Position numbers and translations under genes: made by a program
The notes under the pieces: model-generated
The model's database searches: none
Told to the model about the DNA's origin: nothing
What the model saw: the letters and a program-made list of their open reading frames with translations, nothing else
Source of the DNA: Bacillota bacterium
GTDB lineage: Bacteria; Bacillota; Dethiobacteria; DTU022
Assembly (NCBI GenBank): GCA_051748565.1
Contig: JBNJHN010000005.1
Span: forward strand, 1-61,765
Length of the DNA: 61,765 nucleotides
Direction of reading: 5' to 3'
Shown: piece by piece, positions 38,617 to 46,282 of the stretch
Layout: the number at the start of each line of letters is the position of its first letter
Position numbering within the stretch: the first letter of the stretch is position 1

Positions 38617-38799
38617 TTCCCCTGTCAATAAATATTCTGTAAATGGAAACATATTACAATAATCAGCAAGCCCCGGATTCAGGAATAAGTTATAGATAGC
38701 TCACGTTATTCGAGTAGCCGCCATGAATCATGCTATAGAATTTAGCGCCATTTTTTAGTATTATAGATATTAGATTTTTACATTCGGAGAATGATTAGA

Positions 38800-40986
38800 A
38801 TGGCTGTTAAAGAAAAAAAACTTAACGAACTTAAAAAACGCATCCAGCGCTACTATCCTGACCTGGAGGACTGGGCCCTGGTTGAGAAAGCCTACAATTA
38901 TTCTGTGCAGGCTCATTCCGGCCAGCTGCGTGAATCCGGTGAATCTTACATTACGCATCCGCTCGGTGTGGCCATGATTCTGACTGAACTTGAACTTGAC
39001 CTGGTTACTATCATAGCCGGGCTGCTTCATGATGTGGTGGAAGATACTGATATTTCCCTGGAGCAAATCCGCAATGAATTTGGCGAGGAAGTGGTAGCAC
39101 TCGTCGATGGCGTGACCAAGCTTAGCCGGCTCGATTTTACCTCCAAGGAAGAACAGCAGGCCGAAACTCTGCGTAAAATGTTTATTGCAATGGCCCAGGA
39201 TATAAGGGTTGTTCTAATCAAGCTGGCTGACAGGACCCATAATCTGCGTACGCTGCGTTACCTGAATACCAGCAAGCAAAAAGAGATCGCCCGGGAGACA
39301 TTGGAAATCTATGCACCGTTGGCCCATAGACTCGGTATATATATGATCAAATGGGAACTGGAAGACCTGGCCTTCCGCTATATGCAGCCGTCCGATTATT
39401 TCCAGCTGGTTGATAAACTGGCCAAAAAAAGACGCGAACGCGAAAATTTTATCAACCGGATTATATGGATACTGCAGGACTATTTATCTGAGGCCTCTAT
39501 TGAGGCAGAAATTCAGGGCCGCCCGAAACATCTTTTCAGCATATACAATAAAATGAAAACCCAGGGTAAAGATTTAAATGAGATCTATGACCTTACCGCA
39601 ATTCGAATCATTGTCGATACCGTAAAAGATTGCTATCACACCCTTGGTATAGTGCATACGATCTGGAAGCCGATCCCCGGGCGGTTTAAGGACTTCATAG
39701 CGATGCCGAAACCGAACATGTACCAATCGCTGCACACCACGGTTTTTGCAGCAGAGAACGAACTTGCGGAAATCCAGATCAGGACCTGGGATATGCATCG
39801 TACCGCTGAATATGGCATTGCTGCTCACTGGCGCTACAAAGAAAAACTTAAGGACTCGGGAGAAGTTGATGATAAGCTGACCTGGCTGCGCCAGCTGCTC
39901 GAGTGGCAGCATGATTATCGAGACGCCCGCGATTTTATAAAAGATCTGAAGGGAGATCTTTTTACCGATGAAGTTTTTGTTTTTACCCCCAAGGGAGATG
40001 TCATCGACCTGCCAGCCGGCTCAGTTACCCTTGATTTTGCCTATAAAATCCATACAGACATTGGCAACCAATGTACCGGGGCCCGGGTTAACGGCCGCCT
40101 CGTTCCACTTGATTATCAGCTAAAAACCGGTGATATGGTTGAAGTGATTACTTCAAAGCATGGTTCGCCCAGCCGCGACTGGCTCAAGCTGGTTAAAACT
40201 TCTCATGCCAAAAATAAAATCCGGACCTGGTTCAAAAAGGAAAGACGTGAAGAAAATATTGAAAAAGGGCGGGAAATGATTGAAAGAGAAATCAGGCGTG
40301 TAAATGTTGAGCAGCGAATTTTCCTGAAAAGTGATCTTTTCGAAGAGGTCGGACAGTCTTTTAATATAATGTCTCTTGATGATCTTTATGCTGCCGTCGG
40401 TTACGGTGGGGTGTCAGTACACCAGGTATTAAGCCGTCTTCGCGAAGAATATAACAAAAAATACAAAGACAAGGAGCAGGAGGCGGTTTTGCCGGAGTTT
40501 AAACCGACCAAACACCTGAAGCAGGGTTCTCCCGGAGTTTTAATTCAGGGCATGGATGATCTGTTGATGCGGGTTGCCCGCTGCTGCAATCCTGTGCCCG
40601 GTGATGACATTACCGGCCTTGTCACCCGCGGGCGCGGAGTTTCCATTCATCGCAGTGACTGTCCTCACCTTAAACAATATAAGGGCGACAGAGACCGTTT
40701 ACTGGAAGCTTACTGGATGGGGGAAGCGGGCACCTCTTACCCGGTCGAGATTGAAATCAAGGCGAGCGATCGGAAAAACCTCCTGGCTGATATCATAGCA
40801 ACAGTAAATGAAAGCAGGATTGATGTAAGTGCTGTTTCAGCGCGGGCTGATAAAAACCATGATGCAACTATCCATATGACCCTTGCGGTCAGGGATCAGG
40901 GCCACCTGGATCAAATCATGGCTAAAATTAATAAAGTCAAGGATGTTTTTTCCGTCCGCCGATATGTTTATGGTTCAAAAAGTTGA
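38800..40986 (+). CDS. relA: bifunctional (p)ppGpp synthetase/hydrolase
   Basis: HD domain (YITHP, LLHDVVED), IKLADR, GRPKHLFSI, RFKD, YQSLHTT, EIQIRT, TGS (DFAYKIHT), CCNPVPGD, ACT; start ATG 38800 or 38791. Confidence 0.96.
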   Translation: MAVKEKKLNELKKRIQRYYPDLEDWALVEKAYNYSVQAHSGQLRESGESYITHPLGVAMILTELELDLVTIIAGLLHDVVEDTDISLEQIRNEFGEEVVALVDGVTKLSRLDFTSKEEQQAETLRKMFIAMAQDIRVVLIKLADRTHNLRTLRYLNTSKQKEIARETLEIYAPLAHRLGIYMIKWELEDLAFRYMQPSDYFQLVDKLAKKRRERENFINRIIWILQDYLSEASIEAEIQGRPKHLFSIYNKMKTQGKDLNEIYDLTAIRIIVDTVKDCYHTLGIVHTIWKPIPGRFKDFIAMPKPNMYQSLHTTVFAAENELAEIQIRTWDMHRTAEYGIAAHWRYKEKLKDSGEVDDKLTWLRQLLEWQHDYRDARDFIKDLKGDLFTDEVFVFTPKGDVIDLPAGSVTLDFAYKIHTDIGNQCTGARVNGRLVPLDYQLKTGDMVEVITSKHGSPSRDWLKLVKTSHAKNKIRTWFKKERREENIEKGREMIEREIRRVNVEQRIFLKSDLFEEVGQSFNIMSLDDLYAAVGYGGVSVHQVLSRLREEYNKKYKDKEQEAVLPEFKPTKHLKQGSPGVLIQGMDDLLMRVARCCNPVPGDDITGLVTRGRGVSIHRSDCPHLKQYKGDRDRLLEAYWMGEAGTSYPVEIEIKASDRKNLLADIIATVNESRIDVSAVSARADKNHDATIHMTLAVRDQGHLDQIMAKINKVKDVFSVRRYVYGSKS

Positions 40987-41007: not shown

Positions 41008-41457
41008 ATGAGAGCAGTTGTCCAGCGTGTAAGTAAAGCCAGTGTGGAGGTAGATGGGGAAACGGTCGGCGAGATTGGTTATGGTTTGGTTGTTTTTCTC
41101 GGGGTTGGCCGGGATGACGGACCTGCAGACAGCGATTACATGGCAGGTAAAATTTCCGGCCTGCGCATTTTTGAGGACAAAGCAGGATTAATGAACCTTT
41201 CGGTGGAGGACACCGGCGGTTCAATTCTCTGCATATCACAGTTTACCATAATGGGTGATTGCCGCAAAGGTCGCCGCCCCGGTTTTTCTGCTGCCGCCCC
41301 ACCGGAGCAGGCTGAGAGACTGTATGATTATTTTTGTGAAAACCTGAGCAGCAGAGGTATCAGCATAGCTACCGGTCGTTTTCAGGCAACCATGCGCATC
41401 GTGGTTGATAACGAAGGGCCGGTTACCATGCTGCTCGACAGCAAAAAGCTTTTTTAA
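41008..41457 (+). CDS. dtd: D-aminoacyl-tRNA deacylase
   Basis: MRAVVQRV, LRIFED, SQFT, KGRRP, NEGPVT. Confidence 0.96.
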   Translation: MRAVVQRVSKASVEVDGETVGEIGYGLVVFLGVGRDDGPADSDYMAGKISGLRIFEDKAGLMNLSVEDTGGSILCISQFTIMGDCRKGRRPGFSAAAPPEQAERLYDYFCENLSSRGISIATGRFQATMRIVVDNEGPVTMLLDSKKLF

Positions 41458-41529
41458 CATTTATAACAAACCGGATAGGGCCAAACCCAGCCAACAGGAT
41501 AATATAGAAGATTTGAAAGGAGCATAAAG

Positions 41530-44500
41530 ATGAAATACAAGGCACCCCGCGGGACACGCGACATATTACCGGACGAAGCAAAGAAATGGCAGCACCTGGA
41601 ACAGAGGTTCAGAGATTTTTGTGATCTCTACGGCTTCGGAGAAATCCGGACCCCCATATTTGAACAAACTGAGCTGTTTACCCGCAGTGTTGGTGAGGAT
41701 AGTGATATCGTTTCCAAGGAAATGTATTCATTCAAAGACCGGAGCGGCAGGGACTTAACCCTCCGGCCGGAATTGACTGCAGCAGTAGCCCGGGCCTACC
41801 TCGAGCACAACCTCAAAGAAATACCCCAGCCGGTAAAATTATATTATATTGGTCCCATGTTTCGCTACGATCGTCCCCAGGCCGGTCGTTACCGCCAGTT
41901 TCATCAATTCGGCCTGGAGATTTTCGGAGCATCCAGTGCTGCTGCTGATACTGAAATTATTGCTTTTTGTTATAATTTTTTTAATTCCCTGCATATAGAA
42001 AACCAATCTATCGAGCTAAACAGTGTTGGCTGCCCCGTATGCCGGCCTCAATTTCGCGATGCCCTGATGCCTTACCTGGAAAATATAGAGGGAGATTTAT
42101 GTGCTGATTGTATTAAACGCTACAAGAGTAATCCGATGCGCGTCCTGGACTGTAAATCTGAGAGCTGCCAGGCCGGGGTAACAGGGGCACCAAAGATGAT
42201 TGATCATCTTTGCCAGGACTGTGACAATCATTTTGCTGCTGTAAAAATATTTTTAACCAGGCTGAATATTCCTTTTAACCTTAACAGCCGCCTGGTTCGT
42301 GGCCTGGATTATTATACACGCACTGCTTTTGAAATTGTGGCCGGAGGCTCAGGAGCCCAGGCTTCATTGTGCGGTGGCGGTCGTTATGATCACCTGGTAG
42401 AACACTGCGGCGGGCCTCATACACCGGGGGTGGGAGTTGCTTTTGGTGTCGAGAGGATCCTGCTGGCTATGGATTGGGGTAAGCAGCTGCCGGAAGCTGA
42501 AGCAAAGGTGTATATCGCAACTGCCGGCGATGGGTTGGAAGGAGAATCAATCTTGCTGGCTTCTGAATTGCGAATGCGACACATTGCTGCCGAAACCGAG
42601 ATGATGGGCCGCAGCCTGAAAGCGCAGATGAAATATGCCGGCCGGCAGGGTTGCCAAAAGGTAGTGATCATTGGTGCAGATGAAATAGCCCGTGGTAAGG
42701 TAGCTTTAAGAGATATGGATAGTGGAGAACAGAAAGAGCTGCCCCGGGAAGCTCTGTTTGCCTTGTTAAAGGGCGATTCGCAAAAAACTGAAAAAGCATC
42801 TGCTTCTGCCAGAGAAGCAGAATTTTGTTTACCTCATCCTGGGGAGTCGATTTTTAAAACTCATTATTGTGGTTTGCTCAACCCGGGCCATGTCAATACC
42901 AGGGTCAAACTTTCGGGCTGGGTCGACAGGCGCCGCGATCACGGCGGACTGATTTTTATTGATTTAAGAGACCGCAGTGGTATGATGCAGCTGGTTTTTG
43001 ACCAGCAGCTGGGTGTTCAGCTTTTCAAACAGGCCGAAAGCCTGCGCAGTGAATACGTAATTGCTGTTGAAGGTGAAGTTGTTGTACGTTCCGGGGATAA
43101 CATCAATCCTGCTTTACCCACGGGTACGATTGAAGTCCGGGTTGCTAACATGGAAATATTAAATACTTCAAAAACGCCGCCTTTCTACATTGAAAATGAT
43201 CTGAATGTAGATGAGAATCTGCGTATGCGTTACCGCTATCTTGATTTAAGGCGTCCGGAAATGTTTGGCCGCCTCCGGCTTCGTCACAGGGTTGTAAAAA
43301 TGATCCGTGACTATATGGATAGTTACGATTTTCTGGAAATTGAAACGCCTATTCTAACCCGCAGCACACCGGAAGGAGCCAGAGATTTTCTTGTTCCCAG
43401 TCGACCCCACCCTGGTTCTTTCTATGCCCTGCCCCAGTCACCTCAGCTGTTCAAGCAGTTGTTGATGGTCAGCGGGATAGAGCGTTATTTTCAGATTGCG
43501 CGCTGTTTTCGGGATGAGGATCTGAGGGCTGACCGTCAGCCGGAGTTTACCCAGGTTGATATTGAAGCCTCATTTTTCGGTCAGGAAAACCTTTTTGCCC
43601 TGATTGAAGAACTGATGGTCCGGCTTTGGAAAGAATTCCACGGGGTGGATATAAAACGTCCCTTTTTGCGGATGCCCTACAGGGAAGCCATGAACCGATT
43701 TGGTTCTGATAAACCGGATCTGCGTTATGCAATGGAGCTTGTAGATCTGAATGAAGAGGCCCAAAAAAGCAGGTTCAAGGTGTTTACCTCGGCACTGGAA
43801 AGTGGCGGATCCGTTAAAGGCCTGCGTGTGCCCGGTGGCAGTGCTATGAGCCGCAAAGAACTGGATGATTTAACCCTTCTGGCCAGGCAGCTTGGCGCCA
43901 GGGGGCTGGCCTGGGTTTTTATCGAAAAGGAGGGTTGGCGTTCGCCTATCAGCAAATTTTTCGATGAGTCAGTTATGGTAGAGATAAGCAGTAAGATGGG
44001 AGCCGGTATTGGAGATGTTCTGCTCTTTGTAGCTGACAGCTGGGAAACCACCTGCCAGGTCCTCGGTCACCTGCGCAGCATTCTTGCCCCGGTAGAAATT
44101 GACCCCAGACCGTATTTCCTATGGGTAGTCGATTTTCCTCTTTTCCATTTTAATGCAGAAGAGCAGCGTTACGATTCGGATCATCACCCTTTTACTGCAC
44201 CCAGGGTTGATGATTTGCTTCTCCTGGAAAGCGATCCCCTGGATGTAAGGGCCCAGGCTTATGACCTGGTGCTTAATGGTGTGGAAATCGGTGGCGGCAG
44301 CACCCGTATTCACGATAGCGAAACCCAGTCCAGGATTTTTAGTTTGCTCGGTTTGTCGGAAGAGGAAAGTAAGGAGAAGTTCGGTTTCCTGCTGGAAGCA
44401 CTATCCTTCGGCGCCCCGCCGCACGGTGGGATTGCCCTTGGCCTGGATCGGATGGTTGCTTTGCTGACAGGTGATCAGTCGATACGTCAGGTTATACCCT

Positions 44501-44613
44501 TTCCTAAAACTGCGGCGGCCAGCTGCCTGATGACCGGTGCTCCCGCTGTTGTTGCCGGTGAGCAGTTGAACGAGCTTAAAATTGAACTTCAGGCGCAGGA
44601 AAGCGAAGAATAA
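41530..44613 (+). CDS. hisS-aspS: fused histidyl-tRNA synthetase (about aa 1-415) and aspartyl-tRNA synthetase (about aa 443-1027), single ORF
   Basis: HisRS: PRGTRD, LRPELTA, FRYDRPQAGRYRQFHQ, LVRGLDYYTR, GGGRYD, FGVER. AspRS: THYCG, RRRDHGGLIFIDLRD, RYRYLDLRR, PEGARDF, LPQSPQLFKQ, CFRDEDLRADRQPEF, GAPPHGGIALGLDR. No stop between them. Confidence 0.92.
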   Translation: MKYKAPRGTRDILPDEAKKWQHLEQRFRDFCDLYGFGEIRTPIFEQTELFTRSVGEDSDIVSKEMYSFKDRSGRDLTLRPELTAAVARAYLEHNLKEIPQPVKLYYIGPMFRYDRPQAGRYRQFHQFGLEIFGASSAAADTEIIAFCYNFFNSLHIENQSIELNSVGCPVCRPQFRDALMPYLENIEGDLCADCIKRYKSNPMRVLDCKSESCQAGVTGAPKMIDHLCQDCDNHFAAVKIFLTRLNIPFNLNSRLVRGLDYYTRTAFEIVAGGSGAQASLCGGGRYDHLVEHCGGPHTPGVGVAFGVERILLAMDWGKQLPEAEAKVYIATAGDGLEGESILLASELRMRHIAAETEMMGRSLKAQMKYAGRQGCQKVVIIGADEIARGKVALRDMDSGEQKELPREALFALLKGDSQKTEKASASAREAEFCLPHPGESIFKTHYCGLLNPGHVNTRVKLSGWVDRRRDHGGLIFIDLRDRSGMMQLVFDQQLGVQLFKQAESLRSEYVIAVEGEVVVRSGDNINPALPTGTIEVRVANMEILNTSKTPPFYIENDLNVDENLRMRYRYLDLRRPEMFGRLRLRHRVVKMIRDYMDSYDFLEIETPILTRSTPEGARDFLVPSRPHPGSFYALPQSPQLFKQLLMVSGIERYFQIARCFRDEDLRADRQPEFTQVDIEASFFGQENLFALIEELMVRLWKEFHGVDIKRPFLRMPYREAMNRFGSDKPDLRYAMELVDLNEEAQKSRFKVFTSALESGGSVKGLRVPGGSAMSRKELDDLTLLARQLGARGLAWVFIEKEGWRSPISKFFDESVMVEISSKMGAGIGDVLLFVADSWETTCQVLGHLRSILAPVEIDPRPYFLWVVDFPLFHFNAEEQRYDSDHHPFTAPRVDDLLLLESDPLDVRAQAYDLVLNGVEIGGGSTRIHDSETQSRIFSLLGLSEEESKEKFGFLLEALSFGAPPHGGIALGLDRMVALLTGDQSIRQVIPFPKTAAASCLMTGAPAVVAGEQLNELKIELQAQESEE

Positions 44614-44697: not shown

Positions 44698-44875
44698 TGT
44701 AGCCCTGCGGTGTTCGTGACAGCCGATAAAGTTTTGAGCTAACACTTTTACATCGGGAACCTGGACTTCGGGTGCAGCGCAGCAGCCTTTGTAAAGAGGA
44801 CCTGCAAAACAGCTGAGAGGGTACCCACCTTTCGGGGGAACAGTTCAAAACGACGGACCACGGCACGGCGGGGTT
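44698..44875 (+). ncRNA. ssrS: 6S RNA
   Basis: Typical position after aspS; termini pair (CCCTGCGGTGTTCGT with ACGGACCACGGCACGGCGGGG), internal TTTTGAGCT/AGTTCAAAA pairing, GGGAACC/GGTACCC motifs, then U-tract; ends approximate. Confidence 0.85.
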
Positions 44876-44947
44876 TTTTATTGTTTTTTAGCGTGCTATA
44901 ATAAAAGTTGTTTGCCTGGAATTGCCCTGATTTGATGCAACAGGGAG

Positions 44948-46282
44948 GTGAGAGAGCTGTCTGTCGAGCATTTGTACCTTCTGATCAGTCGGGAATTAAA
45001 AGCCGGAGCCCATCCCGGGGATCTTCTCGATTTGTTCGAGGAACTGGAAGTCGAAGAAAAAGTTGAGCTGATGGAGAAGCTTGCTGTTGAAGATGCGGCT
45101 TCTATCTTTCAGGAAATGGAAGACTTCGAACAAGCCGAAATTCTCAGGCTCTTAAATCCCGAACGAGTAAAAGTTATCCTCAAAAGCCTTGCTTCTGACG
45201 ATGCGGCCGACTTGATCGGCGAGCTCTCACCTGAAGAAGCTCAGGAAATGATCGATTTAATCAGCGAAGAGGAAGAAGCTTTAGACTTTGGCGATCTATT
45301 GAAATACCCCGAAGAGAGTGCCGGGGGCATAATGACAACCGAGTTTATCTCGCTCCCGGCGGATATTCCGGTTGAAGATGCCATTGCCCGGTTGAGAGAA
45401 CTGGCCCCTGAAGCAGAAACTATCTATTATGTTTATGTAGTTGATCAAGAAGGCCACCTGATCGGGGTGCTTTCTCTTCGTGACTTGATTGCATCATCTG
45501 ACGGTACCTTGTTGAAAAATGTCATGCGGCGCAATGTGATCTCTGTTCAGGCCGAACTTGACCAGGAAGAGGTCGCCCGGATTGTTTCAAAGTACGATCT
45601 GCTTGCTGTCCCGGTTGTCGATGCCGGGGAAAGACTGCTCGGCATTATTACCGTTGACGATGTCATTGACGTCATGGAACAGGAAGCGACAGAAGATATC
45701 TACCGCCTGGCCGGGGCCAGCGAAGTGGAAGGTACGGAGCTGACCAAGGCCTCTGTAGGTAAGGTTGTCCGCCTGCGCATGCCCTGGCTGATCATCAGCC
45801 TGGCCGGTGGTGTGTTATCAGGAAGAGTTATTGGTGGTTTTGAAAGTACCCTGGAAGCTATTGTCCTGCTGGCTGTTTTTATTCCAGTCGTTATGGGGAT
45901 GGGGGGTAATGTGGGTACTCAGTCATCTACTATTTTTGTTCGTGGACTTGCTACCGGGGCAATTGAAAAGACCGAAGTCTGGTCATATCTCCTCCGGGAA
46001 ATTAGAATTGGCCTGGCCATGGGGATATTATGTGGTTTTATAATTTCAATAACTGCCTACATCTGGCAGGGCAACCCCTACCTGGGCCTGGTGGTTGGAA
46101 TTTCTATGTTGATAACGATAACCACCGCTGCTATTTTGGGCACTTTAGTTCCTCTGTTACTCAACATGATTCATATTGATCCTGCTATTACGGCGGGGCC
46201 TTTTGTTACCACCATTAAGGATGTAACAGGGCTGCTGATTTATTTTACCGTGGCTACAACTTTCATCGAATATCTCAGGTAA
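44948..46282 (+). CDS. mgtE: magnesium transporter
   Basis: SDDAADL, YPEESAGGIMT, CBS pair, GIITVDD, LRMPWL, MGGNVGTQS, DPAITAGPFVTTIKD. Confidence 0.95.
   Translation: MRELSVEHLYLLISRELKAGAHPGDLLDLFEELEVEEKVELMEKLAVEDAASIFQEMEDFEQAEILRLLNPERVKVILKSLASDDAADLIGELSPEEAQEMIDLISEEEEALDFGDLLKYPEESAGGIMTTEFISLPADIPVEDAIARLRELAPEAETIYYVYVVDQEGHLIGVLSLRDLIASSDGTLLKNVMRRNVISVQAELDQEEVARIVSKYDLLAVPVVDAGERLLGIITVDDVIDVMEQEATEDIYRLAGASEVEGTELTKASVGKVVRLRMPWLIISLAGGVLSGRVIGGFESTLEAIVLLAVFIPVVMGMGGNVGTQSSTIFVRGLATGAIEKTEVWSYLLREIRIGLAMGILCGFIISITAYIWQGNPYLGLVVGISMLITITTAAILGTLVPLLLNMIHIDPAITAGPFVTTIKDVTGLLIYFTVATTFIEYLR

Follow-up and report, generated by a model that had tools for sequence, protein, structure and literature searches.

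Polypeptides that unite two aminoacyl-tRNA synthetases are regarded as rare, and the standard example is the GluProRS of animals (EPRS), which is also given as an example of a two-synthetase polypeptide in excerpts of a 2024 synthetase database paper (PMC11580382). EPRS is a eukaryotic protein in which a class I GluRS is connected to a class II ProRS via structured WHEP repeats. The excerpts of this paper name as fused or split forms only EPRS, double TyrRS, GlyRS alpha-beta, AlaRS, PheRS and PylRS, and no bacterial fusion for two amino acids is among them (PMC11580382). Two synthetase-type modules per chain are also present in a TyrRS of double length from some parasites and in the (alpha-beta)2 fusion of GlyRS (PMC11580382 and PMC9437257, both in excerpts). 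In the bacterial AspRS/GatC family NF009460, an AspRS is likewise fused to a component of aminoacyl-tRNA synthesis, the partner being the small C-terminal subunit GatC. Here we report on a bacterial gene in which histidyl-tRNA synthetase (HisRS) and aspartyl-tRNA synthetase (AspRS) are encoded by one reading frame of 1027 codons plus stop (41530-44613, plus strand). It is located on a contig of 61,765 nucleotides (JBNJHN010000005.1, assembly GCA_051748565.1) of a Bacillota bacterium belonging to the lineage Dethiobacteria; DTU022. This whole stretch of DNA is referred to as the window. We estimate the probability at about 85% that the neighbouring genes hisS and aspS have truly been fused, that this fusion is fixed in evolution and that it gives rise to one bifunctional chain.

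EPRS is the closest analogue of this protein. In both cases two complete synthetases for different amino acids, in our protein recognized by Pfam and NCBIfam models, are joined by a linker, and the fusion is fixed throughout a lineage. In contrast to EPRS, however, the HisRS-AspRS protein is bacterial, consists of two class II enzymes, is derived from neighbouring genes and possesses a tether of approximately 26 residues that is predicted to be disordered. As it contains neither GluRS and ProRS modules nor WHEP repeats, the likeness to EPRS is functional and not by descent. While the double TyrRS and the GlyRS fusion are composed of copies or subunits of one synthetase for a single amino acid, the HisRS-AspRS protein serves two. 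Full-text literature searches did not disclose any description of a HisRS-AspRS fusion, which is thus apparently a bifunctional bacterial synthetase new to the literature.

The open reading frame starts with ATG and comprises three parts. The HisRS module (residues 1-414; 41530-42771, plus strand) is made up of a class IIa catalytic core with a cysteine-rich insertion and the HGTP anticodon-binding domain. Its residues 4-405 cover positions 1-405 of the 406 positions of the HisRS equivalog model TIGR00442 (NCBIfam) with 529.6 bits (cut-off 286.75), and Pfam recognized tRNA-synt_His (PF13393) at residues 8-310 and HGTP_anticodon (PF03129) at 326-414. The AspRS module (residues 441-1027; 42850-44610, plus strand) is of the bacterial type defined by NF001750 and TIGR00459 and contains an OB-fold anticodon domain, a class IIb catalytic core and the GAD insertion (PF01336 at 459-544, PF00152 (tRNA-synt_2) at 561-994 and PF02938 at 752-845). 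Its residues 441-1023 matched positions 3-589 of the 590 positions of the AspRS model NF001750 with 832.9 bits (cut-off 443). Pfam revealed HisRS and AspRS domains only, and residues 415-458 were free of any Pfam domain. The protein remained below the cut-offs of the regulatory HisRS paralogue HisZ (TIGR00443; 189.6 bits, cut-off 271.65) and of the AspRS-GatC fusion NF009460 (640 bits, cut-off 1379), of which it is thus not a member. In the PDB, the HisRS module matched best to the HisRS 1qe0 (E 3.7e-111), and both the AspRS module and the whole protein to the Asp/Asn ligase 4wj3 (E 6.3e-184), while no PDB chain in this sequence search covered both halves.

Between the modules lies the linker (residues 415-440, GDSQKTEKASASAREAEFCLPHPGES; 42772-42849, plus strand), a low-complexity tether that stands in place of the ancestral hisS stop, the spacer and the aspS start. 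The junction DNA reads ...ALFALLKG DSQKTEKASASAREAEFCLPHPGESIF KTHYCG... without any stop, the lysine K443 being encoded at 42856. Within the 40 codons preceding the AspRS start, the sole ATG, GTG or TTG is the TTG that encodes L412 and thus precedes the linker. Positions 1-2 of the AspRS model, where the free-standing enzyme has its methionine, are absent from the protein. Since the linker does not contain a start-type codon, the AspRS part lacks a translation start of its own and has to be regarded as a module and not as a free-standing AspRS. An earlier note on this DNA, made from the letters alone, had described a single frame of 1027 amino acids holding a full HisRS and a full AspRS. Its coordinates and description proved to be correct by the open reading frame, NCBIfam and Pfam, and its reading of a linker without stop, without in-frame ATG, GTG or TTG and with a lost AspRS start was confirmed in the junction DNA.

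The fused frame is not restricted to the window. A search of 5.8 billion protein clusters yielded, among the best 120 proteins, 86 full-length fused homologues (P0002-P0087) of 1022-1051 amino acids, with 60-99% identity and 98-100% coverage; they originate from NCBI, JGI, ENA and Logan. We also surveyed the family to which the organism belongs, represented by 73 species genomes of 23 genera including that of the window. A stop-free match spanning the junction was present in 59 of the 73 genomes and in 16 of the 23 genera. Separate but adjacent hisS and aspS genes were found in five genomes (G012, G014, G016, G066, G067); in two others (G019, G072) the junction DNA showed that hisS ends in a stop and that aspS does not adjoin. 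Four genomes (G010, G023, G070, G075) hold fragments ending short of the junction, and three (G001, G022, G045), which are 69-86% complete, gave no match. None of the 16 genomes from four sister families of the same order carries the fusion: separate genes occur in 13, and the state of the other three (G025, G030, G040) could not be assigned. One genome of the family (G002) carries two fused copies (contigs C146, 193-3237, and C258, 5-2482) with 64% and 63% identity to the query, which could go back to a duplication, to strain mixing or to contamination of the bin.

The relatives with separate genes display the ancestral state. They share the gene order relA/spoT, dtd, hisS, aspS, 6S RNA with the window, and their proteins are orthologous with 50-68% identity. 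In 11 of 13 unfused relatives, the junction DNA shows the hisS stop, a spacer of approximately 10 to approximately 130 nt with a Shine-Dalgarno sequence (a GGAGG-like ribosome-binding site) and then the aspS start, the enzyme beginning with M-x-x-(K/R/Q)-R-T-H-(Y/W)-C-G. In the window, by contrast, stop, spacer and start are all replaced by the coding linker. The cluster relA-dtd-hisS-aspS exists in Bacillus subtilis as well. Within this family of uncultured Bacillota, an ancestor would have converted the stop codon of hisS, the start codon of aspS and the short spacer that contained the ribosome-binding site into an in-frame tether of some 26 residues.

In the genome of the window, which is 95% complete, the fused gene gave the only match above the hisS cut-off, in indirect support of a putative charging of tRNA-His, and a search of this genome with the whole protein revealed no other HisRS, HisZ or AspRS. 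The remaining matches were a LysRS-like frame on contig C58 and a frame on contig C24, which was identified as asnS. Similarly, an additional stand-alone copy was absent from all of the 59 fused genomes (E <= 1e-50). To judge the conservation of motifs, 80 fused proteins were aligned (mean column identity 71%). Invariant in the HisRS module were F111, R112, R115, P116, Q117, G119, R120, R122, Q123 and F124, the segments R257-G-L-D-Y-Y262 and G282-G-G-R-Y286, and the residues G302, A304, G306, E308 and R309; in the AspRS module the sequences QSPQ, FRDEDLRADRQPEF and GLDR did not vary. These stretches include motif 2 and motif 3 of class II synthetases and the HisRS- and AspRS-specific boxes. 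Since the HisRS and AspRS activities are both essential, we strongly infer that both modules work. The fused protein would then be the only source of HisRS and AspRS activity in the cell. The insertion of the HisRS module (residues 168-231; approximately 42031-42222) also contains seven cysteines that were invariant in the 80 proteins (C168, C171, C191, C194, C208, C228, C231) and one that was nearly so (C213). Their CxxC...CxxC spacing looks like a putative metal-binding site.

The linker itself, delimited by the alignment columns of residues 413 and 442 in 87 proteins of the family, has 19-41 residues with a median of 28. The earlier note had called it rich in Ala, Ser, Glu and Lys. This holds for the present genome, but not for the family, in which Ala, Gly, Pro, Glu and Ser prevail. 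An AlphaFold2 model computed on the alignment of 80 sequences (mean pLDDT 74.5, pTM 0.46) had pLDDT values below 50 over residues 417-440, and the linker is predicted to be a flexible tether. Approximately eight residues ahead of the AspRS start resides a motif of the form hydrophobic-x-(Leu/Met)-Pro (family consensus aEVxLP), which in the window reads E431-F-C-L-P435 with the conserved part F432-C433-L434-P435 at 42823-42834 (plus strand). It was present in 66 of 68 proteins of the main clade of fused forms, as compared with 8.1 on average and 15 at most in shuffled linkers, though such counts are inflated by kinship; in a deeper fused branch only one of 19 proteins possesses it. The codons of the motif vary synonymously between genera, and therefore the constraint acts on the protein. 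The conservation suggests that the linker may have gained a role of its own, e.g., in docking or processing.

Two other properties of the linker DNA were considered. The Gly-Glu/Lys residues of the linker might be a translated relic of the Shine-Dalgarno sequence, but their codons are too variable, and this idea was abandoned. Furthermore, the linker of the window contains a perfect 9-bp hairpin followed by AUUUUGUUU (42799-42821, plus strand; -15.3 kcal/mol, z = -3.17), which resembles an intrinsic terminator. When 33 fused loci were compared, the linker window of highest stability lay at a median percentile of 0.075 of all windows of the gene. As this is about the minimum expected by chance for a dozen windows, we do not regard the hairpin as a feature of the family; it appears to be specific to this lineage.

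Several other explanations of the data have to be weighed. A lost base or a chimeric join could have erased the hisS stop in the contig, which stems from a metagenome-type assembly of 110 contigs. Continuity of the junction was judged on assembled Logan contigs of public sequencing runs, which demonstrate presence and continuity of the frame and not support at the level of raw reads. A contig of run X2 from another study (record 9) covered 42632-43239 without a single difference to the window, and contigs of runs X3 and X4 from a third study (records 11 and 13) covered the whole region 42300-43300 with 16 substitutions and no gaps; run X1, from which this DNA may stem, was not counted as independent. 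None of the public-run contigs aligned to 42300-43300 exhibited inserted or deleted letters at the junction. The same frame is kept open in the 86 database clusters and the 59 species-level genomes, although the fused forms are separated by many substitutions. Because it recurs in dozens of independent assemblies, the frame is not a product of chance or error, and an artefact is refuted for practical purposes. The claim of the earlier note that we are dealing with a true gene fusion and not with a lost stop or a faulty assembly was thus borne out by the contigs of other studies, by the 59 family genomes, by the ancestral state in the relatives and by the lack of a second copy; the fused homologues that it proposed to look for in related genomes were found. 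It is also highly improbable that one half is not a working synthetase, but a HisZ-like or regulatory protein or an AspRS paralogue, the true enzyme being encoded in the unassembled 5% of the genome. The genome is indeed not closed, and paralogues of HisRS (HisZ) and of AspRS occur in other bacteria, as stated in excerpts of PMC9437257. Against this stand the scores of hisS and aspS far above their equivalog cut-offs and of HisZ below its own, the invariance of motif 2, motif 3 and the His- and Asp-specific boxes across 80 sequences, and the fact that a stand-alone second copy was encountered in 0 of 59 fused genomes.

More serious, though in our opinion still unlikely, is the alternative that the gene is fused while the proteins are separate, either by cleavage of the tether at the linker motif or by internal initiation just before the AspRS module. 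Cleavage would agree with a motif that is kept in the main clade while the rest of the linker varies freely, and with the predicted exposure and disorder of the linker. Yet the deeper fused branch has retained the fusion almost entirely without this motif, and a cytoplasmic polyprotein processing of bacterial synthetases is not known to occur. With regard to internal initiation, the window contains the sequence GGGGAG 3 nt ahead of an in-frame ATT at I441; this spacing is short, however, and the ATT is not conserved. A conserved in-frame ATG, GTG or TTG ahead of the AspRS module was not found at any linker position in the 33 fused loci, and thus internal initiation is not a family feature. Moreover, it would leave the longer product, in which HisRS is joined to a full-length AspRS, in place. 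Some NCBI records do have AspRS begin at an Ile or Leu codon within the frame. Among P0093, P0274, P0276 and P0099, there are AspRS entries of 594-632 amino acids whose first codon is a Leu, Ile or Met codon in the interior of the fused frame: the start of P0274 falls inside the frame of P0072, and P0093 matches the linker of locus L028 from its Ile codon on. The Leu and Ile starts probably result from model-guided picking of the start, but they mean that others have already put forward an internal start. We prefer the reading of one fused, bifunctional chain, but a number of points weigh against it. The single product of 115 kDa is a prediction from the gene, and among the sequencing runs listed as containing this stretch none is recorded as RNA. 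The AlphaFold model does not place the two modules confidently relative to each other (see the pTM above), the linker motif, with its strong conservation, might be a site of cleavage, NCBI annotates some members (P0274 and P0093, 594-596 amino acids) as AspRS alone with a start at the said Leu/Ile codons, and the base of the family is not resolved, so that with a minimum of two changes either two fusions or one fusion and a fission are possible.

For the phylogeny of the locus, HisRS and AspRS parts were concatenated from 44 loci, of which 33 are fused and 11 have separate genes. The tree does not include L020, which represents the same place as L060, L042-L057 and the loci L062, L063 and L067 that comprise HisRS only. 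Thirty fused rows formed one main clade (SH-aLRT 100). A second branch is made up of the remaining three fused genera (g2, g15, g17) and is situated at the unresolved base, where the genera with separate genes (g12, g14, g16) are placed as well. While the tree as a whole requires at least two changes, its well-supported branches force only one, and a single clade of all fused forms was not rejected by the AU test (p = 0.396). The fused gene may thus have arisen by a single fusion, with or without a subsequent fission, or by two fusions. In a FastTree of the AspRS parts only of 78 proteins, the family was a single clade with a support of 100. The library of 50% representatives, in which P0072 is the one representative of the whole family, is of no use for counting independent fusions.

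HisRS-AspRS frames were also detected outside the family. P0094, P0095, P0096 and P0104 lie among ordinary AspRS proteins in the tree and cover both models completely. P0094 and P0095 share 51% identity over both halves but have unlike linkers, and a cluster mate of P0096 is named as an Acidobacteriota metagenome-assembled genome. Each of these fusions was met just once or twice, and they are possibly independent. Two other candidates, P0102 and P0106, were discarded: their HisRS parts are truncated and their linkers apparently out of frame, so that they are probably errors or pseudogenes. Complete HisRS-AspRS frames thus appear sporadically elsewhere, and among the data searched, this family is the only one in which the fusion is fixed across many genera.

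If the gene is expressed as it reads, it would yield one polypeptide of approximately 115 kDa consisting of a class IIa HisRS and a bacterial-type class IIb AspRS, and both activities would be produced in a strict 1:1 ratio from one translation start. As in other class II synthetases, each module probably pairs with its own kind, which would lead either to a dimer closed through two dimer interfaces or to a longer chain. The double dimer or higher oligomer proposed by the earlier note may reasonably be expected from the enzymology of class II synthetases. It is conceivable, though rather doubtful, that the fusion is more than a neutral read-through and builds a defined two-synthetase particle, in which HisRS and AspRS dimers have a fixed arrangement or form an open-ended chain, the tether motif serves docking or regulation, and the coupling has repeatedly been selected. 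Such a particle would correspond, in a minimal bacterial form, to the multi-synthetase complex of eukaryotes, and the fusions of P0094/P0095, P0096 and P0104, which belong to three or more unrelated lineages, would reflect repeated selection for HisRS-AspRS coupling. A possible reason for the coupling would be that both enzymes serve tRNAs of the G/Q34-U35 anticodon family. Irrespective of such a particle, a bacterial lineage would have depended on one HisRS-AspRS chain while at least 16 genera diverged. This is an experiment of nature on whether one polypeptide can accommodate two obligate class II dimers and on the oligomer that would result. The protein may also offer a simple model, workable in Escherichia coli, for the benefit of fusions by fixed stoichiometry, stability or channelling.

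The public names of the fused family proteins refer to a single enzyme, being "aspartate--tRNA ligase", "aspartyl-tRNA synthetase" or "histidine--tRNA ligase, partial". One partial fused protein named histidine--tRNA ligase is filed under a Limnocylindrales label. We regard this as a warning for annotation, as completeness checks could score hisS as missing.

The earlier note had also suggested a non-discriminating AspRS because of the His in the sequence RRRDHGG, a residue which we presume to be a determinant of non-discrimination. Exactly this segment is possessed by four PDB sequences (4wj3, 5w25, 4o2d, 4rmf), three of which are named Asp/Asn ligase. RRRDHGG is likewise present in unfused AspRS proteins of Bacillota, including those of the unfused relatives. 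The genome harbors two gatB genes (contig C6, 1929-3353; contig C1, 49851-51278), and its best match to Asn synthetase, which is the only such frame (contig C33, 8581-9585), remained below the cut-off (186.7 against 267.1). By reason of the two gatB genes and the sub-threshold Asn synthetase, asparagine may be made on the tRNA in this organism. On the other hand, the asnS gene on contig C24 (2357-3739), encoding AsnRS, was recognized with 606 bits and speaks against a non-discriminating AspRS. Judged by the gene content and the motif, non-discrimination is plausible.

The fused gene is preceded by relA/spoT (38791-40986) and dtd (41008-41457), the latter being separated from it by only 72 nt (41458-41529). 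At Rfam gathering scores, no T-box or other leader was detected before hisS, neither in the window nor in the loci of 16 relatives; the hisS-aspS operon of B. subtilis is equipped with a T-box. Downstream, a 6S RNA (RF00013, 84.7 bits; 44699-44878, plus strand) begins 85 nt past the stop of the fused gene and is followed by mgtE (44948-46282). A 6S RNA after aspS was found in 14 of the 16 relatives' loci, in fused and unfused ones alike.

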